A stretch of 64,000 bases of DNA from assembly GCA_963841435.1 (NCBI GenBank), contig CAWJCS010000002.1:736001-800000 (forward strand), read 5' to 3'. How positions within the stretch are numbered: position 1 is the first letter of the stretch; each line of letters begins with the position of its first letter. The DNA comes from an uncultured delta proteobacterium. Its GTDB lineage: Bacteria > Myxococcota_A > Polyangia > Polyangiales > Polyangiaceae. Made by a program: the position numbers and the translations under genes. Below are positions 8,928 to 21,977 of the stretch, in pieces. The notes beneath the pieces are model-generated. The model was not told the DNA's origin. It saw nothing but the letters and a program-made list of their open reading frames with translations, and made no database searches.

Positions 8928-10379
8928 CTACTGGACCGGCTTTTCGGCCTGTACTTTTTCGAACAACGCGCGCTCTTCCGGCGTCGCTTCCTCGAGCTCG
9001 GGCGGCTCGGAGAAGCGGTCGAGCTTGCGCTCGAGCGATTTGCGATTCACGCCGAGCAGGCGCGCCGCCGCGCTCTTGTTGCCGCTGCACATCTCGATGG
9101 CGTGGTGCAGGATGGCGCGTTCGATGAGATCGAGCTTCGAGCCGATGCGCGACGGCAGCGCGAGGATGGCGCGCGCCATGCGGTCCACCTCGCGCGCGCC
9201 TTCGGTGAGCTGGCCGCCCACGAGCTCCTCGAGCACGGGCACGTCGACGACTTCCTTTTCGGCGAGCAGCGCGAGGCGCTCGACGCCGTTTTTGAGCTCG
9301 CGCACGTTGCCCGGCCAGCGCCGCCGGCGGATCCATTCGACGGCTTCGTCCGTGAAACGGAGCCTGGGCTGAAACTGCGCCGCGAACGAGTGCAAAAGCT
9401 CGATGACGTCGTCCCCGCGGTCCGCGAGCGAAGGCACGGTCACGGCGACCACGTTGAGGCGGTAGAAGAGATCCTCGCGGAACCGCCCCTCCGCGATGCG
9501 CTTCTCCAGGTCGACGTGGGTCGCGGCGATGACGCGCGCCTTGAGCGGCAGCTCGTCCTCGCCTCCGAGCGGGCGAAAGCGCCGGTCCTCGAGCACGCGC
9601 AAGAGCTTTGCCTGCAGCTCGACGGGCATCTCGGCGATCTCGTCGAGCAGCAGCGTGCCGCTGCCGGCGAGCTCGAGCTGCCCGCGCATGCGCTGCACGG
9701 CTCCGGTGAAGGCGCCGCGCTGGTGGCCGAAGATCAACGATTCGATGAGGTTGCCCGGCAACGCAGAGCAGTTCACGGCCAGAAATGGCTGGCTGCTGCG
9801 GTGGCTCGAGTGGTGGATGGCACGGGCCACCATTTCCTTGCCGCTGCCCGTCTCGCCGAGGATGAGCACGGGTGCTTCCGCGTCCGCGACGCGCGCGACG
9901 AGCTTCATGACGCGCTCCATCGGCGGCGAAGTGCCGATGAGCGCCGCCGGGCCGAAGCTGGTGTCGATGTGTTGCTTGAGCCGCACCACCTCGCTCCGCA
10001 GCTGCAGGCGCTCGCGGATGCCTTCGACGATGGGCAGGAGCATCTCGGGGCCGAGCTCGTCCTTGAGCACGTAGTCCTGAGCGCCCTGGCGCATGGCCTC
10101 GCGGATCTCGGCCAGCTCCGTCGAGGCGGTCACCATGACGGCGGGCGTGGAGCGTCCGCTCTCGCGTAGCCAGCGCAAGAAGGAGAGCCCGCCGCGATCG
10201 GTCGGATTGGGCGACAGCCGGATGTCGACGAGGGCGGCATCCGGATTCTGGCTCTCAACGCGCTCCTTCGCTTCCTCGAGGCTGCCGGCCTCCAGAATCT
10301 CGACGTCCTTGAGCTCGCTAAGCAGGTGGCGGAGCACGCGCCGCGCGCTGCGCTGATCGTCGACGAGGAGGATCTTCAT
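8928..10379 (-). CDS. Sigma-54-dependent response regulator (REC-AAA+-Fis HTH, NtrC family)
   Basis: LLVDD...LVDIRL receiver, GETGSGKE, GAFTGA, LLDEI, FREDLFYRLNV, WPGNVREL, GNKSAAARLLG; 4-nt overlap with the kinase stop. Confidence 0.96.
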   Translation of the reverse strand: MKILLVDDQRSARRVLRHLLSELKDVEILEAGSLEEAKERVESQNPDAALVDIRLSPNPTDRGGLSFLRWLRESGRSTPAVMVTASTELAEIREAMRQGAQDYVLKDELGPEMLLPIVEGIRERLQLRSEVVRLKQHIDTSFGPAALIGTSPPMERVMKLVARVADAEAPVLILGETGSGKEMVARAIHHSSHRSSQPFLAVNCSALPGNLIESLIFGHQRGAFTGAVQRMRGQLELAGSGTLLLDEIAEMPVELQAKLLRVLEDRRFRPLGGEDELPLKARVIAATHVDLEKRIAEGRFREDLFYRLNVVAVTVPSLADRGDDVIELLHSFAAQFQPRLRFTDEAVEWIRRRRWPGNVRELKNGVERLALLAEKEVVDVPVLEELVGGQLTEGAREVDRMARAILALPSRIGSKLDLIERAILHHAIEMCSGNKSAAARLLGVNRKSLERKLDRFSEPPELEEATPEERALFEKVQAEKPVQ

Positions 10380-12768
10380 GCAACCCTTGCTTCCGAGTCG
10401 GCGGCCGCCTCGTTCGGCGCCTGGCGCGCGCCGTCGCGCACGATGTCCTCACCGCGCACGGTCACGGCGAAGACGGTGCGGCTATCGCGGCGCTGCGCCG
10501 CGATGCTCCAGCCGTGCGCGCGCACGAGCCGGTGCGTGATGGCGAGGCCGAGGCCCGTACCGCGTGGCTTGGTGGTGTACCAGGGCGCGAACAGTCGCGA
10601 CGGGTCGCCCACGTAGCCCGGGCCCTCGTCCCACACCGAAAGCTCCCCGCCGCCGCCCGCCGCGCGCCACGCGATGCCGACGCGCCCATTCGGGCCGCAC
10701 GCCTCGAGCGCGTTGGACATCAAGTTCACGAGCACCTGAGTCATCTTGTCCGGATCGCAGCGCAGGGTCGCGTCCGCTCCGAGTCCGAGCTCGATGTGCC
10801 GGTTGCCGAGTGCATCCCCGAGCAGCGTTTCCACGCGCCCGCAGAGCTCCGACACCGGCGTTGGCGCCCGCTCCAGACGGTGAGCGGCCATGCGCTTCAA
10901 CCCCGAGACCAGCCGCTCCAGACGATCCACTTCTTCTCTGCCCACGTCGATGTCGTCGGCCGTCAACGCCACGCTGCGGGAGCCACGCTCGAAGACGCTC
11001 CTGAAGTAGTTGATGGGGTAGCGCACCTCGTGCGCGATCTCGGCCGCGACCGTCTCGACGAGGGCTTCGCGCTCGCCGCGCCATGCCTCTGCCTGCCGGC
11101 GCCGCCGCTCCTCGAGCTCCTGGTAGGCGTGGGCATGGGCGAGCGCGAGCCCACCGTTGTTGGCGATCGTACGCAAGAGATCGATGTCGTCGCTCGTGAA
11201 GAGCGCGCCGCCCCGCTTCGCTCCCGCGTCGAGCCAACCGAACGGTTTGCCGCCGAAAGTGACCTCGAGCCTGAGCTCGGCGTCGCTCGGGCGCGGCGGC
11301 TCGTCGGTCTCGACGCCGGCGCCGGTCGGGCCCTCGCCCGACGCTGGGCCCTCTGCGTCGGCGACGGTGGACCTCCGCGGTGCCGGCGCGAGCGTGAGGT
11401 GAATGTAGTCGCAGGGCAACCAGCGACGCACGGTGCGCTCGATGGCCTGGGTGACCTCTCTCGGCGAGGTGAGCGTCGTCAGCTCCTCGCTCAGACGGTC
11501 GATCGTGGGTTTGTACTGTGAGCGCGACCGAAACAGCGTGAAGTCGCTGACGCGCAGCGCCGAGACGACGAGCACAGCGGCCGCCACGCCGCCGCCCGCG
11601 GCACCGGCCAGCGCATCACGGAAGCTCGCGCCCATCCACGTCGCGAGCGCACCGCCCACGGCGATGGCGAGTGCGCAGGCGAGCGCGCCGACGAACAGGC
11701 TCGTGCCGACGCGAGACAGCAACGCACGACTGCCCCAAAGGTCATAACGCACGAACGCGTACAGGCTCGCGACCGGCGCGAGTAAAAGCGCGGGGAAGAC
11801 GATGGCGTCGGGAAAGGACTTAAGGAGGCCGAGCGAAGTGAGCACGCCCCAAACAGCGACCCCGGTGTAAGCGGGCACCATCGACAGGAGGAGGGCACGT
11901 AGCGTGTCGCGCTGTTCGCCGCGCGACTGGCCGTAGCGAAAGAGAAACCCCGCCACGAACGCTACGAACGAGAGCCCCAGCAAGAGCGTGACGAGGCTCT
12001 GAATCGGCCCGGTATCGCGCCCGAGCAGGTAGGATCCGGTCAGCGTGAGAGCGAAGCAGAGGGCGATCGCCTGGATCAGCGTACGGGTCCAGGGGTGCTT
12101 CCTCACGACGGCGACCGTCGTCGGCAGCTCCAGAACGAGAAGCACGACCACGAAGGGGAGGATGGCGAAGGCCGAAAAGAAAATCGGCGTCAGCGTTCTG
12201 GTCGTGTGAACGTTGAAGAGTGTGAGCAGGAAAAGTCCGCTCGTGACGCCGAACTTGGCGAACGCCCGTGACAACGCGCCACGCGGTCGCGCCCAGAGTG
12301 CGAGCAGACCCGCGCTAGCGTAGACCACGCCGCTAAAAAGAAAGCTGCCCGCGTAGAGCCACCAGCCGATGGGGGAAAGCGGCTGGAGGGCCAGGCGGAC
12401 GACTTCTTGGTCGAGCTACGCTCGACGACGGCATCGAGGTAGCCGACCTTCGCCGCCTCCACGACGGCGGCATCCCACGCGGTGGCCCGGGCCAGGCTTC
12501 CCGTGACCCCTTCCGCCCCCACGGGCAAGACCCGATCAGGAAATTTCAGGCCCAGTCGTCGTCCCGCCCAGTCGTCGAGGCCTAGGCTGGACACCGAACC
12601 GCCCGGATCGACCAGGACGCCCGGGATCGGACGACCATACCAGGTCAGCGCATCGCGGACGGCAACACAGGTCAGCGCGACCAGGAGGCTCGTGAGCACG
12701 ACGATGGCAAGGGTGACCCGCGGTCCGGCGGCATGGTCGTGATCGGCTTGGGGCACGTTGCCCAGCAT
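10376..12768 (-). CDS. Membrane sensor histidine kinase (TM + PDZ-like loop + multi-TM + GAF-like + HisKA/HATPase), one frameshift near 12416
   Basis: The 12190..12768 frame gives TM1 and a PDZ-like stretch (AGRRLGLKFPDRVL...VVER). After a missing base it continues LDQEVVRLALQPLSPIGWWLYAG into 10376..12328, with several TM helices, F-x-x-DDIDLLRTIA, AHEVRYP, NLMSNA, DEGPG, TTKPRGTGLGL. AGGAG RBS upstream. Confidence 0.9.
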
Positions 12769-12815: not shown

Positions 12816-14693
12816 TCAGCCCGATCCGGCTCTCAAAGAGCCCGGGTCGGCCGGTCGCTCTGCCTCGCTGGCCGGGACGACTCCGGAGCGGTGCGCTTGG
12901 GTGTTTGGCGCTCGCCCCCACTCGGCCGCGTCGACGAGCTGCCGGAGGATGGCCTCTTCGAGGGCACCCTCAGCCTCCGCCGACGAGCGGGCGCGCAGCG
13001 CCACCTCGAGGCCCAAGAGAGCCTCCTTTCGCGTGCCGCTCGGGTCCGCGTCGGAAAGGACGCGCAGCAATAGCCCGAGCTGCCGGAGCAGGTGGCCCCG
13101 AGGCTGAACGCCGAGCCGTTCCGGATGCCGCGCCCAGACTCGCGCCGCGCGCAGCATGCTCGCGAGCGCGTGGGCCGCGGTCGAATCGCGCATGATGACG
13201 CAAACCGCAAATTGCCACACCGCCCGCGACGTACCCGGGGCAAGCGGGGCGCCACGCGACGCTTCGACGAAAGCCCGGGCAGCGTGGTGTTCTCCCATGC
13301 GCACGAGTGAGAGGGCCACGGGGTCGGTCGCGGCAAGGCAAGCGGTGGTCGCGCTCAAGCGGCCGTACCCGTGCTTGGCATTGTGGCCGTCGTCATCGCT
13401 GCCCAGGGGCTCGAAGTCGCGGCGATCGGCGAGCCCGTGCTCAAAAGCTCGCCCCGACGGATCGAGAGCAACGCTCGTTTCACGGAGCAAGCAATCCACG
13501 TCGGGCAAAGTGAGCAGCGGATTCGTCGCAAGCAGGAGCAGGAAGACACCACTCGCGACGCCGGACGCGCCGCTGGACTCCGCGTGCCATGCCCGCTCCT
13601 CTTCAGCGAACGGGTAGGCCATGTCGTCGCCCGGAGCGAGGAAGCGCACCGACGGACCGCGATTCGCGAATGGCCTCAGGCGCCCGCGTCGGTCGAGCCA
13701 GAGGAACCAGCCACCGTCGCGGGCGCTCGGCCCGATGCAGAATACGCGAGGATCGGCCGCGGGCTCACCCAGGCCGAGGCTGAGGCTCGAATGGACCGAA
13801 TCGTGTGGGCTCGACATCTCGCGGCCCGTGGGCATCACGACGACGGTGCCGCGTCCGCCGCGCCCAACGCGCACCGCGAGCTCGAGCGCGTCGTCGAGCA
13901 TGGGGCTGGTTTGCCCCTCGACGTACGTCGCGCACACGATGACGTCGGCGCCGTCCTCGACGGCGCGCGCGATGGCGAGCGGTAGCGTCCACACGTCGTT
14001 GCCCGGCTTGGGAATGCAGTAGAAGCGGGGGGACGCGTCGGGAGCGATGCCCGAGAAGCGCTTCCCGTTCGCAGCCGTCGCTCCTACCGCCCAGCCGAGC
14101 ATCAGTGCGGCGTGCGAGTGCGACCGCGGTATCGCAGCGACGGCGACGGGCACCTCCGCCTCGAGCGGGATGCGCTCGAGTTCGAGCCCGTCGTTGTCGA
14201 TCACCGCGAGTCGCGTGCCAGCACCGGTCCCGCAAAAGCGGCGGTTAACGTCCGCACCCTTCGCCCGAAGGAACCAGCGCCAGGGCGTGTCGGCTTCGAC
14301 GAGCTCCGTTGGCCCGCGCGCGGGCCAGTCGCGCGCTTGTCGTCGGGCGCGCGTCACGCAGAAATCGAGGCGCGGGGGAAGGGTCTGCGTGCCGCGCCTC
14401 GCCGAGGTGACGTAGCGCACGCGAGCGGAGCCTAGACGGCGAGATACCTCCCGGCGATCGAGCTTCTTCGAAGACTCGACCCGCGTCCAAAAGATCGGGT
14501 GATTGCTGAACAGGGGCGTCACTGCAACGTCGGGGGCGAGGTCCGAAAGCGCGCGAGTGACCTCCACGGGATCGATGTCCTCGCAGGTCGCAACGACGAG
14601 GTCCTGCTCCGGTTGGCCCTCGTCGCCACCCCCATCGGGATCGGCGCGTAGTCGAAGTCCCAACTCGGGTCCGGGTCCGCCCGCGCCGCTCAC
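12816..14693 (-). CDS. S8 (subtilisin-like) serine peptidase, divergent
   Basis: GAGTRLAVIDND (Asp), HSHAALMLG (His), FLAPGDD...ESSGASG (Ser), HNAKHGYGRL. GTG start at 14693 overlaps the upstream TGA (GTGA); the track's 15302 start lies inside the upstream gene. Confidence 0.82.
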   Translation of the reverse strand: MSGAGGPGPELGLRLRADPDGGGDEGQPEQDLVVATCEDIDPVEVTRALSDLAPDVAVTPLFSNHPIFWTRVESSKKLDRREVSRRLGSARVRYVTSARRGTQTLPPRLDFCVTRARRQARDWPARGPTELVEADTPWRWFLRAKGADVNRRFCGTGAGTRLAVIDNDGLELERIPLEAEVPVAVAAIPRSHSHAALMLGWAVGATAANGKRFSGIAPDASPRFYCIPKPGNDVWTLPLAIARAVEDGADVIVCATYVEGQTSPMLDDALELAVRVGRGGRGTVVVMPTGREMSSPHDSVHSSLSLGLGEPAADPRVFCIGPSARDGGWFLWLDRRGRLRPFANRGPSVRFLAPGDDMAYPFAEEERAWHAESSGASGVASGVFLLLLATNPLLTLPDVDCLLRETSVALDPSGRAFEHGLADRRDFEPLGSDDDGHNAKHGYGRLSATTACLAATDPVALSLVRMGEHHAARAFVEASRGAPLAPGTSRAVWQFAVCVIMRDSTAAHALASMLRAARVWARHPERLGVQPRGHLLRQLGLLLRVLSDADPSGTRKEALLGLEVALRARSSAEAEGALEEAILRQLVDAAEWGRAPNTQAHRSGVVPASEAERPADPGSLRAGSG

Positions 14694-15655
14694 GTCAGCA
14701 CCTCGGCCGCCCACGAGCCGAGCTTGATGGCGCGCACGACGTACCCGGCGTGGCGATCTTCCAGCGGCAAAAGGGCGTCGAGGCGGACTTGGCGTTGCTC
14801 TGCCCAGCGAGCGAGCGTGTCGGCGCCGAGCGCTCGTGCGTGGCGCCAGGCGGTTCGGTACTGATGCCGTGCGTCCCGCAACATCAGGTACAAGACACGC
14901 ATCCCTAGCACCCGGCGGCGAACGATGTCGGGCTCCGTGGGGCGCTCGTTTTTGGGGTCCTGTTTCACTGCCTCGAGCCGCCGCCTCGCGAGCGATACCG
15001 CCCACGCGCCGCCGCCGCGCCGCCAATCGTCCTCCCAGTCCCCGGCATCGTCCTCGAACTGGAGGCCGAGCCAGACACCCGCGAGCAGGCGGTGGACCTG
15101 CTCGACCTGAATGGGAGAGGCACCCGACGCGCGAGCCAGCGCGAGCGTGGCCGGAAAGCCAACTGCCTGTTTCGCGAGTGAGATGCGCCGATAGTCGCCG
15201 AACGTGACGGCAGCGATGCGACTCAGTAGGGCGTGCTCTTCGAGGATTGCCTCGCTGGTTTCTCGGTCTGCCGCTTCCGCGAGCGCCACGGTGTCCGGGC
15301 ACAGCTCCGCCAACAATCGATCGCGACCGCTCCGGAGCTCGGCAAGGAGCAAGAGCAGCTCCGGGGTGGGACTGATTTGCCGGTCGGCGACGCGGTCCGT
15401 GCCGAATGCTTCGATGACCGACAAGGCGTGTGCAAGCACGGCAAGACGGACGTGCTCGGGGCGCGCCATGGGGAACGCCTCGGCGACCAAGCTCGGCGCC
15501 TCGAGCGTTACCGCGTGGTTGAAGACATCGCTCCAGGCCTTACCGCTGACCGGGGCGAGCCCCAACAAATGCGGAAGGTCGCGGGCAATCCCGCGCAGTG
15601 CAGGAGGTAGCGCATTCGCGTAGCCCGCGTAGAGCGCGTCTATCATGGATGTCAT
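14690..15655 (-). CDS. Class I isoprenoid-synthase-fold protein (polyprenyl synthetase/ComQ-like prenyltransferase)
   Basis: FARM-like AHALSVIEAFGTDRVADRQ, KT-like DYRRISLAKQA, SARM-like GLQFEDDAGDWEDD; predicted all-helical. Confidence 0.78.
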   Translation of the reverse strand: MTSMIDALYAGYANALPPALRGIARDLPHLLGLAPVSGKAWSDVFNHAVTLEAPSLVAEAFPMARPEHVRLAVLAHALSVIEAFGTDRVADRQISPTPELLLLLAELRSGRDRLLAELCPDTVALAEAADRETSEAILEEHALLSRIAAVTFGDYRRISLAKQAVGFPATLALARASGASPIQVEQVHRLLAGVWLGLQFEDDAGDWEDDWRRGGGAWAVSLARRRLEAVKQDPKNERPTEPDIVRRRVLGMRVLYLMLRDARHQYRTAWRHARALGADTLARWAEQRQVRLDALLPLEDRHAGYVVRAIKLGSWAAEVLT

Positions 15656-15715: not shown

Positions 15716-16036
15716 TCAGTAGCCGTTCGACTCCTTCCAGGGAGAGATCGCGACGTTGATCCGCTCGTTGACGACGATGCTCCGCCAGAGAACCACCTGG
15801 GCGGCGCTGAGCTCCTCGAAGTCACCGCAGACCCAGTCCGTGATGCGGGCGTTCAATTGCGCGCGCACGCGACGTGCGTCGTCGTTCTCTTCGGTGGCGT
15901 CTTCGGTCGTAGGATAAAGAGCGAGCAGCTGCTTGAATTCGTCGAAGCGGTTCTGATCTTCCAAAAGTGAAATGTAGAGGCGGCGAAGCTGAGCGTGGGG
16001 GTCGGTGGCGTGCATTTGGGTAGCGACGGCGGTCAT
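15716..16036 (-). CDS. 106-aa small protein, candidate precursor peptide ending ...VAISPWKESNGY
   Basis: ATG at 16036 preceded by AAGGAG; non-shadow amino-acid composition; first gene of the co-oriented cluster. Confidence 0.8.
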   Translation of the reverse strand: MTAVATQMHATDPHAQLRRLYISLLEDQNRFDEFKQLLALYPTTEDATEENDDARRVRAQLNARITDWVCGDFEELSAAQVVLWRSIVVNERINVAISPWKESNGY

Positions 16037-16097
16037 TGGGTGGTTTTTCTCCTTGATGCATGCGGGTGAGAGCCCGCACTGCTGGCCCCCCCAGACG

Positions 16098-16113
16098 TGC
16101 AAGGATCGTGCAC
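16098..16113 (-). promoter_or_regulatory. Sigma-54 (-24/-12)-like promoter upstream of the peptide gene
   Basis: Minus strand GTGCACG-ATCC-TTGCA against consensus TGGCACG-N4-TTGCW: correct spacing, but TG replaces the conserved GG; about 62 nt upstream of the ATG. Confidence 0.55.
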
Positions 16114-16177
16114 ACGTCGTGACCTCCAGGAAGCACCCGCATTTGCGCGGATCGCGTCGCGCGCGCCGGTTGACGCT

Positions 16178-16214
16178 GGTCGGATCCGGCCAAGCGCGGG
16201 GTCGGATCCGGCCA
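16178..16214. promoter_or_regulatory. Two identical 15-bp near-palindromic boxes (GGTCGGATCCGGCCA), 22-bp period; candidate enhancer (UAS)
   Basis: Copies at 16178-16192 and 16200-16214 with palindromic core CGGATCCG; about 90-125 bp upstream of the inferred sigma-54 start site. Confidence 0.65.
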
Positions 16215-16267
16215 CTCGTCGCCGCATCGCAACGTCGCTACGCTCGCGTGCGAGTCAGCGCGTGCCG

Positions 16268-16576
16268 ATGCCCGTCCTGTTGTTCGTCTACGGATCCCTC
16301 ATGCGTGGGGGGAAACATCACGCCGAGCTCGCCGATGCGCGTTTCGTCGGGCCAGCTGCGACCGAGCGCCGTTGCGGCGTCGTGCGGGTCGCGGAGTATC
16401 CGGCGCTCGTGCCCGGAAACGACGTAGTCCCCGGAGAGCTCTACGAAATCGACGAGACGAGCTTGCTCGCGCTCGATGCTTTCGAGGGCGAAATGTACCG
16501 TCGCGACACCGTAGCGCTCGACGACGGCCGCGTGGTGCTGGCCTATGTTCTCGCCGCCGCCGCGGGGCCGTATTAG
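16268..16576 (+). CDS. Gamma-glutamylcyclotransferase (GGCT/AIG2-like) family protein
   Basis: [26 protein letters not shown]-x-x-Y-x-R motifs. Confidence 0.88.
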
Positions 16577-16586
16577 GCCCTCACCC

Positions 16587-17439
16587 ATGAGGCTGATTCG
16601 CTTCGGCGCTCCCGGTAACGAGCGTCCCGGCGTGCTCGTTGGGGGCGATCGGCGCGACGTTTCCGAGGTATTTCGCGACTGGGATCGCGACTTCTTCGAG
16701 AGCGACGGGCTTGCGCAACTTGCGCAGCTTCTCGCACGCAGCGTCGCGACGTTGCCCGTCGTCGATGCGTCCGAGCGCTGGGCGTCGTGCGTGGCGCGAC
16801 CCGGCAAGGTGCTCTGCATCGGGCTCAACTATCGCGACCACGCGCGCGAGTCGGGTGCGGAGCTTCCCAAGGAGCCGGTGCTGTTCCTCAAGGCCGCCAA
16901 CACCGTCGTCGGTCCGTACGACGACGTTCAGGATTCCGCGCAGCAGCGCGAAGACGGATTGGGAGGTCGAGCTCGGCGTCGTCGTCGGCAAGCGTGCTCG
17001 CTACGTGCCTTCGGCGAGCGCGGCCCTCGAGCACGTCGCAGGCTACACGATCTCGCACGATGTCTCCGAGCGCGAGTTCCAGCTCGAGCGCGGTGGGCAG
17101 TGGACGAAGGGGAAGTCGTGCGACACCTTCAATCCGCTCGGGCCGTACCTGGCCACGCCTGACGAGGTGGGCGATCCTCAGGCTCTCGCGCTCGGTCTCG
17201 ACGTGAACGGCGTGCGCCGCCAGTCCGGAAATACGCGGGATATGGCGTTCGGGGTGGCCGAAATCGTTCGCTACGTGTCCGAGTTCATGACGCTCGAGGG
17301 CGGCGACGTCATCAGCACGGGGACGCCGGCGGGCGTCGGGCTCGGCATGAAGCCGCCCGTCTACCTGAAGAACGGCGACGTGTGCGAGCTGTTCGTGGAA
17401 AAGCTCGGCACCCAGCGCCAAACGTTTCGGAGCGAGTGA
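16587..17439 (+). CDS. Fumarylacetoacetate hydrolase family protein, one +1 frameshift near 16931
   Basis: [17 protein letters not shown] in the first frame; [32 protein letters not shown] in the second; deleting one G of GG restores DDVQIPR. Confidence 0.9.
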
Positions 17440-20819: not shown

Positions 20820-21977
20820 TTGCATAAACCCGTGCAACAAGACCCCCGACAGGCAAGGCGGCTGCGGGTGCGGGTGGCACTCGTCGCTGTCGTCGCGTTC
20901 GTTGGCTGCAACGTCTACGACTCCTCCCTGCTGACCGGGCAGGAATGGGGCGTCGCGGCCGGCGTGGGCGGTAGCGCGGGAGTTTCGGGCCTGGGGCAAG
21001 GGGGCGGGACCAGCGGCAGCGGGGGCAGCGGCGGCTCGGGCCTGACGGGCGGCTCGTCGGGCCGTGGTGGTGGTGGTGGTGGTGGAAATGGGGGCTCGAA
21101 CGGGGGCACCGGCGCGCTCGAGGGCGGCGCCATGGGCGAGGGGGGCCAGGGCGACACGGGCAGCGGCGGAACCACCGCCGGGGCGACGGGTGACGGCGGC
21201 ACGACCGGGGGCGCAAGCGGCGATGCCGGAACCGCCGGTGCGGGCGGAAGTAGCGGCAAGGGCGGCTCTTCGGGGGCGGGCGGCACCAGCGGCACCAGCG
21301 GCACCAGCGGCACCAGCGGCACCAGCGGCACCAGCGGCACCAGCGGCACCAGCGGCACCAGCGGCACCAGCGGCACCGCGGGTGCGGGCGGCACGAGCGG
21401 CGCGGGCAGCGGCGGTGGTGGCACGGGCGGCGGCGCCGAAACGTGCACGGGCTGCGCTCGGCTCTCGGTCCCGCTCGCCGCGACCGGCGACCATGCTCAC
21501 TACGTCTTGGCGCTGCCCTCGACGACGAATCTTGCCGCCGCCACGATCACCGTGCGCTTCGTGAGGTTCAAGGGTACCGGCGGTCGCGTCAGGTTCTACG
21601 TCCAGCACGGGGGCAGCCCCGACTACAGCTGGGATTTGGGTCCCGAGACGCCCATCGCCAACATCGCGACGAGCGGGACCAACGTCGCGTGGGACATCGC
21701 GAGCACGTCGAGCACGTTCGACCGCACGGTCATCGCGCGGATCGGGATCGAGGTGAACGGTGCGAGCGCGACCGCGTGGACCAATCCGACGGTGCTCTAC
21801 GTCGATCGCATCGACGTGTCCGGGGCTAGCCCCGCCCTGGCCGCTTCGACCTTCGACGCCGCCTCGTCGGTGGACACGACGCCGACGAGCAGCGGCCCGA
21901 CGGGCCCGCTCTGGCTCAACAGCTACAGCGGCGACACCAACGTCACGGGCGCCGCGCTCGGCTGGCTCGGGCCCTGA
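20820..21977 (+). CDS. Gly-rich-linker lipoprotein with a beta-rich (possibly carbohydrate-binding) C-terminal domain
   Basis: Lipobox-like FVGC, long Gly/Ser/Thr linker, aromatic beta-strand domain ending VLYVDRIDV; start codon uncertain. Confidence 0.72.
   Translation: MHKPVQQDPRQARRLRVRVALVAVVAFVGCNVYDSSLLTGQEWGVAAGVGGSAGVSGLGQGGGTSGSGGSGGSGLTGGSSGRGGGGGGGNGGSNGGTGALEGGAMGEGGQGDTGSGGTTAGATGDGGTTGGASGDAGTAGAGGSSGKGGSSGAGGTSGTSGTSGTSGTSGTSGTSGTSGTSGTSGTAGAGGTSGAGSGGGGTGGGAETCTGCARLSVPLAATGDHAHYVLALPSTTNLAAATITVRFVRFKGTGGRVRFYVQHGGSPDYSWDLGPETPIANIATSGTNVAWDIASTSSTFDRTVIARIGIEVNGASATAWTNPTVLYVDRIDVSGASPALAASTFDAASSVDTTPTSSGPTGPLWLNSYSGDTNVTGAALGWLGP
21282..21377 (+). repeat. Perfect coding tandem repeat (GGCACCAGC) x10 plus a partial copy, encoding (GTS)n
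   Basis: Identical 9-bp units with no synonymous variation. Confidence 0.95.

Follow-up and report, generated by a model that had tools for sequence, protein, structure and literature searches.

X321, a diverged isoprenoid-synthase-fold protein of a Polyangiaceae operon, as a candidate prenyltransferase for the C-terminal tail of a conserved small protein

The window considered here, by which we mean the whole 64,000-nucleotide stretch of DNA that was analysed, comes from an uncultured delta proteobacterium of the family Polyangiaceae (assembly GCA_963841435.1, contig CAWJCS010000002.1, positions 736,001 to 800,000) and has a G+C content of 63-71 %. Its minus strand carries a gene for a protein of 321 residues, which we call X321, and what this protein does, and to what, is the subject of this report. 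The gene order around X321 is the same in the eight genome loci and in the informative metagenome loci (homologous loci are numbered below with an L), all of it on one strand: small gene – X321 – S8-like peptidase (not always present) – histidine kinase – NtrC-type regulator (Table 1). The small gene adjoins X321 in every locus with upstream DNA, and the small gene, X321 and the peptidase gene are each present in a single copy in the window's genome. A first-pass annotation, made from the sequence alone, had placed three motifs in the X321 reading frame, DRVAD, Y-x6-KQA and QFEDDAGDWEDD, and had read RQISPTP rather than an RRG loop after the first of them. The list of open reading frames and the translation confirm the frame, the motifs with their places and the R-Q-I-S-P-T-P that follows D87-R-V-A-D91; the consensus of the wider family at this point is D-R-x-x-D-G-Q.

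Table 1. Features of the X321 operon and of its upstream region, in window coordinates.
Feature	Position	Strand	Basis
X321 gene, 321 residues, ATG start	14690..15655	minus	open reading frame list, translation, homologues
D87-R-V-A-D91 codons, DxxxD acidic pair at the C-terminal end of helix 66-90	15383..15397	minus	alignment, model
Y155-x6-K162-Q163-A164 codons, equivalent of the synthases' Y..KT diphosphate-binding lysine motif	15164..15193	minus	profile alignment
QFEDDAGDWEDD codons, residues 199-210 (Q199-F-E-D202-D203-A-G-D206-W-E-D-D210), second Asp-rich motif with upstream Gln	15026..15061	minus	aligned to FQxxDDxxD
X321 residues 298-320 codons, C-terminal extension past the synthase fold, predicted docking site for the small protein	14696..14764	minus	structural matches, predicted interface
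Small partner protein, 106 residues	15716..16036	minus	start fixed by in-frame stop upstream in L002 and by alignment
Tail residues 96-106 codons (A-I-S-P-W-K-E-S-N-G-Y)	15719..15751	minus	homologue alignment
S8-like (subtilase) peptidase, 625 residues, GTG start overlapping the X321 stop (GTGA)	12816..14693	minus	sequence, alignments
Membrane histidine kinase, seven hydrophobic stretches and upstream N-terminal segment, then HATPase_c	10376..12768	minus	domain search
NtrC-type response regulator: receiver, sigma-54 interaction, Fis-type helix-turn-helix	8928..10379	minus	PF00158 (E 2.3e-66), PF00072, PF02954
Sigma-54-like -24/-12 promoter element, xGCACG-N4-xTTGCA	16098..16113	minus	fixed spacing kept in 35 aligned loci
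G run, seven G	16086-16092	minus	follows the -24/-12 element
Two 16-bp palindromes TGGNCGGATCCGNCCA, 22 bp apart	16177-16192 and 16199-16214		pair kept in most aligned loci

X321 is a real and conserved gene. It matches nothing in Pfam or NCBIfam, not even with the limit relaxed to E ≤ 1, and its named homologues are all labelled 'hypothetical protein', yet the family is sizeable: scoring of 8000 candidates gave 295 homologous proteins at E ≤ 1e-3, and in a search of every protein (1.84 billion) 244 cluster representatives passed E ≤ 1e-3, while 155 and 75 passed the stricter limits of 1e-10 and 1e-30, respectively. Polyangiaceae metagenome bins are the source of the only homologue that carries an organism name and of six of the eight genome loci. 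With a wide profile built from 57 diverse representatives, each standing for one cluster at 50 % identity, strong full-length matches (E ≤ 1e-91) were found in three of 401 sampled genomes of the phylum, all three belonging to the same family as the window; a few other families have weaker relatives (E 1e-12 to 1e-19), and the weakest matches are ordinary synthases. None of the 22 distant-relative loci L083-L104, from other families of Myxococcota, shows a small-protein or S8-like gene in the 1.5 kb on either side, and many of them are ordinary synthases. Of these, L083-L088 and L090, which match the family profile at E 1e-10 to 1e-20, are related to X321 only distantly and have different surroundings; they probably form a separate subfamily. 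Mean column identity is 64 % in a separately chosen set of close homologues. Since H76, Y155, K162, F200, D203, W207 and E208 are invariant in 33 close homologues, the sequence motifs of X321 can be taken as more than chance; across the 57 representatives Y155 is found in 54, K162 in 49, D203 in 55 and W207 in all 57. Three proteins of 500-771 residues (P0148, P0204 and P0206) that appeared to be X321-peptidase fusions were rejected: their two parts are joined by Arg-rich out-of-frame stretches, as would arise if gene calls ran on in contigs of high G+C, and they do not look like natural fusions.

The AlphaFold2 model of X321, made with a 33-row alignment, is all-helical, with a mean predicted local distance difference test score (pLDDT) of 91.6 and a predicted template modelling score of 0.89. 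In a structure search against about 48,000 representative chains, independent of Foldseek, the best match was the solanesyl diphosphate synthase 9jqs_A (Z 23.2, root-mean-square deviation 2.8 Å over 268 residues), and prenyl synthases, subunits of these or prenyltransferase domains make up nearly all of the top 41 rows, together with the indole prenyltransferase Ord1 (Z 19.4) and MoeN5 (Z 16.8). While the trans-isoprenyl diphosphate synthases run from Z 23.2 to 16, the terpene cyclases give matches of 13.2-11.9 (13.2, 12.7 and 12.3 at best) and a UbiA homologue reaches 12.4. Foldseek is in agreement (top E 1e-4, template modelling scores 0.64-0.70, Ord1 at E 1.2e-4). The class I isoprenoid synthase fold that had been proposed for X321 is thus supported, and the model lies closer to the prenyl synthases than to the terpene cyclases.

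By sequence, a profile of the close X321 family finds nothing significant among PDB sequences, its best matches being a TIR-domain protein (E 0.058) and, further down, the geranylgeranyl diphosphate synthase 2j1o (E 0.52). The wide profile matches the synthases 3oyr_A (E 7.2e-4) and 4jxn_A (E 7.6e-4) through Y..K(T/Q) and QxxDDxxD, and an Atlas search with X321 returned mostly unnamed clusters and, besides these, one with PF00348 in 21 % of its members. As a comparison set closer to home we assembled the polyprenyl synthases of the window's genome and of 30 others of the phylum, from which a motif filter kept 28 of 31 loci (L010, L026 and L040 were dropped). Local alignment of the X321 profile to these 28 with hhalign gave a probability of 93.9 % (E 1.6e-7, 149 columns), with Y155 and K162-Q163 falling on Y..KT and Q199..D202-D203..D206 on FQxxDDxxD.

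The canonical synthases (PF00348; 9jqs, 3oyr, 3mzv) therefore share with X321 the fold (Z 21-23), Y..K(T/Q) and QxxDDxxD, but X321 has no PF00348 match, its first motif is cut to DxxxD, and the residues needed for chain building are gone. In trans-isoprenyl diphosphate synthases it is the basic residues of GGKRxR and RRG that bind isopentenyl diphosphate (IPP). In X321 no RRG loop follows the first acidic pair and the RRG position is not basic; a global profile alignment, whose N-terminal half has low confidence, sets N-H-A-V-T-L-E against GGKRLRP, and residues 46-54, which cover every shift of the match by up to two residues in that uncertain region, contain neither Lys nor Arg. The GK...D..EGKxT segment that follows the second motif of the synthases is deleted, leaving a 12-residue gap. 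A PF00348 scan of the 7.78-Mb genome found three ordinary synthase loci elsewhere, X321 not being among them. The first-pass claim that the chain-elongation Arg loop is missing holds in each of these respects and, because the IPP-binding basic residues are absent, the sequence makes chain elongation by X321 appear very unlikely. Most likely, X321 has diverged within the superfamily of the trans-isoprenyl diphosphate synthases and no longer builds chains. It also differs from the canonical enzymes at its other end: the structural matches mostly stop near residue 295, beyond which X321 has an extra C-terminal helix, predicted to bind a partner, in which E299, G304, R308 and L312 are invariant.

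The two acidic pairs of X321, D87/D91 and D202/D206, behave as a unit. Both are present in 33 of the 57 representatives and neither in 20, while four have the second pair only and none the first only (Fisher p 9e-12, a value that is overstated, the sequences being related). Judged from these sequences, this is the pattern of one site built from both pairs, and about a third of the wider family, the 20 that lack both, may be non-catalytic. In the model, the helices 66-90 and 181-205 have D87 and D202, respectively, three residues ahead of their ends, and D91 and D206 one residue beyond them, which, if the model is right, is the mirror arrangement expected of two facing motifs. The global alignment puts D87 two columns from either candidate canonical position, with a confidence of 0-1, and an ungapped anchor on H76, S79 and P96-T97 would make D87 the last Asp of the canonical first motif. 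The modelled helix-end symmetry with D202/D206 argues that D87 and D91 are the first and last Asp of that motif.

The small protein encoded just upstream of X321 has 347 homologues, nearly all of 103-107 residues; an apparent protein similarity upstream of its start is conserved non-coding DNA. Neither Pfam nor NCBIfam, nor the Atlas (best 0.80), nor Foldseek against the PDB (best E 1.9) gave a family or fold match, and the Pfam matches to TPR_19 and YtzH are far under their cut-offs. Its model (mean pLDDT 68) has a disordered N-terminus, helices at 13-26, 28-39, 52-69 and 78-90, and a tail with pLDDT < 50. In 120 of the 120 listed homologues the tail ends in x-Tyr after W-(K/R)-E-(S/A)-N, the Trp being present in 119. 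The residue x before the C-terminal Tyr is highly variable and may be G, I, L, F, A, V, M, T, W, Y or S.

In three predictions of a complex between X321 and the small protein, the interaction prediction score from aligned errors (ipSAE) was 0.65, 0.73 and 0.63 (median 0.65), as against 0.01 for the best of three controls. This mark is reached by 116 of 157 solved complexes and by 2 of 215 mismatched pairs; since the alignments were our own, these counts are a rough guide only. Between runs at least 42 % of the contacts are shared, and the partner has a pLDDT of at least 71. The confident interface joins residues 246, 250 and 298-320 of X321 (in the last stretch 298, 301-305 and 308-320), and hence mainly its C-terminal extension, with helices 14-31 and 83-91 of the partner; tail residues 96-106 are not among the confident contacts, which is evidence neither for nor against their reaching the pocket. 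These predictions support the binding of X321 to the small protein. The first-pass annotation had linked X321 to an upstream peptide, and the association stands, by adjacency, by the predicted complex and by co-variation with x-Tyr (see below), but the 'peptide' has to be refined to a conserved 106-residue helical protein with a flexible tail.

The most informative loci are those in which x-Tyr is missing. There are eight in which the small protein stops at the Asn, and one, L063, in which it has an unrelated ending. Wherever x-Tyr is present, D87, D91, Q163, Q199, D202 and D206 are all kept (32 of 32 loci where covered; L074 covers only the first four of these residues), and the neighbouring D203 is Asn in L007. 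Among the loci without x-Tyr, D91 is replaced in nine of nine, by E, T, G, S or A; Q199 has become Lys in five and Glu in L063, Q163 is Leu or Val in five, and D202/D206 are T/T or T/S in three. Other positions are unchanged in the same loci, namely H76, R88, R111, Y155, K162, W207, E208, D210 and W218, as are the interface residues. The peptidase gene follows the same division. All 16 x-Tyr loci with 200 nt or more of downstream DNA have it, as do the window and L059, where its start lies at the contig end (12 further x-Tyr loci end too soon and the genome loci L081 and L082 were left out of this count). It was not found in any of the seven Asn-ending loci with downstream DNA, in six of which the kinase follows after 356-622 nt, nor in the 2.9 kb downstream of L063.

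A maximum-likelihood tree of 31 rows (L068 was left out; L003 and L055 are duplicate rows, as are L001 and L048) unites the seven Asn-ending loci in one clade with a support of 100/97, nested among the x-Tyr loci; two sub-clades within it carry different substitutions, and L063 stands separately. The latter is a metagenome contig whose X321 homologue has D91A, Q93R and Q199E and whose small protein ends …P-W-G-E-A-T-S-V-E-P-K; it has no kinase downstream, and a kinase-like gene lies upstream on the other strand. Because only loci with x-Tyr and the peptidase require the pocket residues, the chemistry of X321 most likely concerns x-Tyr, and on this sequence evidence the target on the partner is likely to be the C-terminal x-Tyr rather than the tail in general. 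The constant Tyr would be the likeliest acceptor, because x varies freely. The Asn-ending proteins, for their part, look like the product of a cleavage after Asn104, which suggests where the peptidase might cut.

With respect to the remaining genes of the operon, nine peptidase sequences all have D166, H194 and S373/S374, and the Asp and Ser motifs can be aligned with kexin. The profile scores of the peptidase are low (PF00082 at 19.0 bits, below the cut-off of 21.8; TIGR03921 at 33.9 bits, far below 278.75), and at what we take to be the usual position of the oxyanion Asn it reads G-R. The kinase gene of the window lies in two frames: what is a single open frame in L001 is matched in one frame at 12720-12424 and in another at 12409-10379. 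Eight other loci read the N-terminal segment and the body through in one frame. There is no obvious homopolymer at the frame change near 12409-12424 (window positions 12400-12430), and the change could be either a true frameshift or an assembly error. Divergent from the operon, at 16205-17439 on the plus strand, lie genes for an AIG2-like gamma-glutamyl cyclotransferase (PF06094, E 9e-21) and a protein of the fumarylacetoacetate hydrolase family (PF01557, E 2e-56). Three closer loci, L002, L003 and L004, have both of them and L006 has only the hydrolase gene, while both are missing from L007 and L008, the most distant; they are probably inherited neighbours only. Further away, at 20820-21977 on the plus strand, an open reading frame of 385 residues has a long Gly/Ser/Thr-rich low-complexity stretch with about ten tandem G-T-S units, followed by a C-terminal domain; the strand opposite has Pro- and Ala-rich mirror open reading frames.

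The region upstream of the small gene was compared in an alignment of 35 upstream regions. Five divergent loci have the canonical GG (GG-N10-GC) in the -24/-12 element, where the remaining loci read C-G or T-G, and the palindromes lie about 60-90 bp before the element. In the whole genome (7.78 Mb) these palindromes are the sole exact copy and an adjacent copy with one mismatch, among 71 sites with two mismatches or fewer, and from their sequence and position they are likely to be binding sites of the NtrC-type activator. With palindromes and a sigma-54-like element before it, the operon therefore looks autoregulated through its own activator. After the G run come a short GC-rich hairpin, a ribosome-binding site and the ATG. 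The hairpin (16061-16078, minus strand) is found in most of the loci L002-L072, its arms varying in sequence yet pairing; it has 6+6 bases in the window, L002 and L042, and in L004 its 3' arm overlaps the ribosome-binding site. The leader region has no Rfam match.

We propose, as a reading that we hold to be about evenly balanced between right and wrong, that X321 is a ComQ/PalQ-like prenyltransferase acting on the C-terminal x-Tyr of its partner, which the peptidase then cuts off. X321 has several features of the trans-isoprenyl-diphosphate-synthase-like (trans-IDS-like) peptide prenyltransferases: the fold, the acidic pair D87/D91, Q199, an adjacent precursor with a flexible tail and a predicted binding to it. 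In such a scheme the family-specific C-terminal helix of X321 would hold the four-helix body of the 106-residue partner, while D87/D91 and D202/D203/D206, with K162 and Q199, would bind Mg2+ and an allylic prenyl diphosphate. The prenyl group would then move to the partner's flexible tail, most probably to the C-terminal Tyr of N-x-Y, and the translationally coupled peptidase would probably cut after Asn104, giving a small prenylated x-Tyr product and a 104-residue protein ending in Asn. By position and analogy, the multi-pass histidine kinase would sense the prenylated product and in turn switch on the NtrC-type regulator; acting from the two palindromes, the regulator would drive the sigma-54 promoter of its own operon. 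The prenyl donor, acceptor atom, cleavage site, export and sensing in this system are all things that we infer. Taken as a whole, the scheme would amount to the first synthase-fold prenylation of a C-terminal Tyr, with subtilase release of a prenyl-(x-Tyr) autoinducer in which x gives strain-specific 'pherotypes', and with a read-out by kinase and NtrC/sigma-54 positive feedback: a ComQXPA-like quorum sensing in Gram-negative myxobacteria, of which some lineages would have lost the signal and kept the carrier-enzyme pair for a second role. That this entire picture is correct seems to us rather unlikely.

Several points weigh against the proposal. The mean column identity of the small protein is 71 %, higher than the 64 % of the close X321 set, and it is unusually long and conserved for a precursor. 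The pocket losses trace to only about three lineages, each without x-Tyr and peptidase, so that the co-variation rests on few events; and as the lineages without x-Tyr, peptidase and D91 keep both proteins and their interface, the pair must have a further function, independent of this chemistry. The first motif of X321 is D-R-x-x-D rather than DDxxD, and the N-terminal half, in which it would be matched to the canonical motif, aligns with low confidence. The deleted GK segment bears a lysine that helps to bind the allylic diphosphate in the synthases, and donor binding in X321 may accordingly differ. The operon has no exporter gene, and the kinase gene is frameshifted in this assembly. Finally, a 2026 review has all characterised enzymes of this type acting on Trp (PMC13290415), and a Tyr acceptor would be without precedent among them.

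This last point leads directly to the possibility that an enzyme of the same class uses as its acceptor the invariant Trp100, as ComQ uses an internal Trp, with x-Tyr serving only for recognition or processing by the peptidase and the whole maturation route having been lost together in the Asn-ending lineages. Besides the Trp found in 119 of 120 listed partners and the habits of the characterised relatives, the presence of Q199 speaks for it, since the Gln upstream of the second motif has been tied to indole recognition, according to that review (PMC13290415). Yet Trp100 is kept in seven of the eight Asn-ending loci despite the loss of D91 and often of Q199 or D202/D206. It is x-Tyr, not Trp, that vanishes together with the catalytic residues, so the Trp appears to be kept for some reason other than being the substrate, and we regard Trp100 as an unlikely acceptor. 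It is quite unlikely, in our view, that X321 acts on a small molecule, either as a terpene synthase or as an aromatic or head-to-middle prenyltransferase like Ord1 and MoeN5, with the small protein as a regulatory or scaffolding subunit. Ord1, whose substrate is free tryptophan, and MoeN5 do stand among the structural matches (Z 19.4 and 16.8), the predicted interface uses the partner's helices and not its tail, and D202, D206 and D210 (i, i+4, i+8) have what we take to be the spacing of the terpene-cyclase metal triad, even if the residues differ from NSE/DTE. Against this, the terpene cyclases remain at Z ≤ 13.2 where prenyl synthases reach 23.2, and a small-molecule substrate leaves unexplained why the catalytic residues should track the last two residues of the partner and the peptidase gene.

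X321 could also be no enzyme at all. It would then bind or regulate the small protein, much as heteromeric prenyl synthases have subunits without catalytic activity, and might modulate the kinase/regulator pair. Among the structural matches at Z 14-16 are 5xn6_C, 3qkc_A and 9kp1_A, which we take to be such subunits; the 20 representatives without either acidic pair, and the Asn-ending lineages that keep the pair of proteins and their interface without D91, are what one would expect of a binding protein. That six polar pocket residues are kept in all 32 x-Tyr loci, the window included, and that the two acidic pairs are gained or lost together, in the pattern of a working metal site, makes the idea decidedly unlikely for X321 itself. 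Finally, the fold, the KT-like lysine and the true QxxDDxxD second motif might suggest an ordinary chain-elongating prenyl diphosphate synthase that has diverged too far for Pfam. With no basic residues at the IPP positions, no RRG, GK..GKxT deleted, three canonical PF00348 loci already in the genome and a family that is confined to one lineage and tied to a partner gene, this is extremely unlikely. We also considered a heteromeric synthase of small and large subunits and discarded it: X321 lacks the IPP-binding residues, and the added C-terminal helix forms the predicted interface.

The known trans-IDS-like peptide prenyltransferases are ComQ, the P domain of ChrPC and PalQ, according to a 2026 review, and all those characterised target Trp and share the Gln before the second motif (PMC13290415). 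PalQ of Paenibacillus alvei offers the closest parallel to our proposal: this superfamily member was once annotated as a terpene synthase, was found through an AlphaFold-predicted complex, and belongs to a three-gene cluster, PalQ/PalX/PalP, of a prenyltransferase, a long-leader precursor ending in Trp and a histidine kinase (PMC10853753). In both systems a diverged superfamily enzyme is encoded next to a long precursor, which has a folded leader and a C-terminal aromatic residue that is conserved; a histidine kinase and a predicted complex are likewise common to both. The acidic pairs of PalQ, D89/D93 and D200/D204, with Q197 (PMC10853753), have nearly the same numbers as D87/D91, D202/D206 and Q199 of X321, the Gln in each case standing three residues before the second pair. 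However, PalX has an NHLP-type leader and ends in Trp, whereas the partner of X321 has an unrelated four-helix domain and ends in x-Tyr; and to what is described of the PalQ cluster the X321 unit adds a dedicated S8-like peptidase and an NtrC-type sigma-54 activator, in a Gram-negative myxobacterial host.

ComQXPA of Bacillus (PMC4008528) likewise combines on one strand a prenyltransferase, a pre-peptide, a membrane kinase and a regulator, with an acceptor near the C-terminus of the adjacent product. The partner gene comes first in the X321 operon, unlike in ComQXPA. In addition, ComX is short and hypervariable while the partner of X321 has 106 highly conserved residues, and ComA is unlike the NtrC-type enhancer-binding regulator of the X321 operon. 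StheQ/StheX is a member of the group from the Chloroflexi (Sphaerobacter), in which a DDxxD-type first motif is combined with a pseudo-second motif (bioRxiv 10.64898/2026.08.29.745113). As described, ComQ and StheQ have a DDxxD or D-E-x-x-D first motif and a pseudo-second NDxxx, whereas X321 has D-R-x-x-D and a true DDxxD second motif. Ord1, an indole prenyltransferase built entirely of alpha helices (PDB 9v4g; PMC12510300), shares the synthase fold with X321 and uses it for aromatic prenylation; it is described as acting on free tryptophan and as having a pseudo-second motif (bioRxiv 10.64898/2026.08.29.745113). Unlike X321, it has no protein partner in what its published description, so far as available, relates.

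A different kind of likeness is found in the scaffold-peptide pathways. In mycofactocin (MftA, Val-Tyr) and in pearlin-type systems the C-terminal residues of a ribosomal scaffold are modified and then cut off, and, as around X321, there is a conserved carrier, its last residues appear to be the working part and the peptidase is a dedicated one; the peptidase-less lineages of the X321 family, in keeping with this, encode a carrier that already ends at the presumed cut site. The chemistry of those pathways is based on radical S-adenosylmethionine enzymes or on aminoacyl transfer RNA, and we know of none with an isoprenoid-synthase-fold enzyme. Altogether, by every feature compared, X321 would work like ComQ, PalQ and StheQ, a likeness drawn from published descriptions of these enzymes; among the Pfam and NCBIfam models, none for them matched X321. 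It departs from them in its D-R-x-x-D and in having a true second motif, in the fold of the partner and its x-Tyr ending, in the presence of a dedicated peptidase and a sigma-54 regulator, and in the phylum of its host. In a literature search outside most subscription journals we found no published description of such a system in myxobacteria, and there is a real chance that the X321 family has a new acceptor and a new kind of released signal.

If our proposal is correct, the X321 family would extend the synthase-fold peptide prenyltransferases to the myxobacteria, with a different leader, a peptidase, a sigma-54 loop and possibly a new acceptor. Enzymes of this kind are under development for late-stage peptide lipidation, as the review cited above relates (PMC13290415), and a Tyr-directed one, if that is what X321 is, would be a useful tool. 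The lineages that lack the tail ending, the peptidase and the acidic residues together are natural 'knock-outs' and offer a guide to the key residues. For the Polyangiaceae themselves, the X321 cassette is a candidate for a peptide-derived cell-cell signal.

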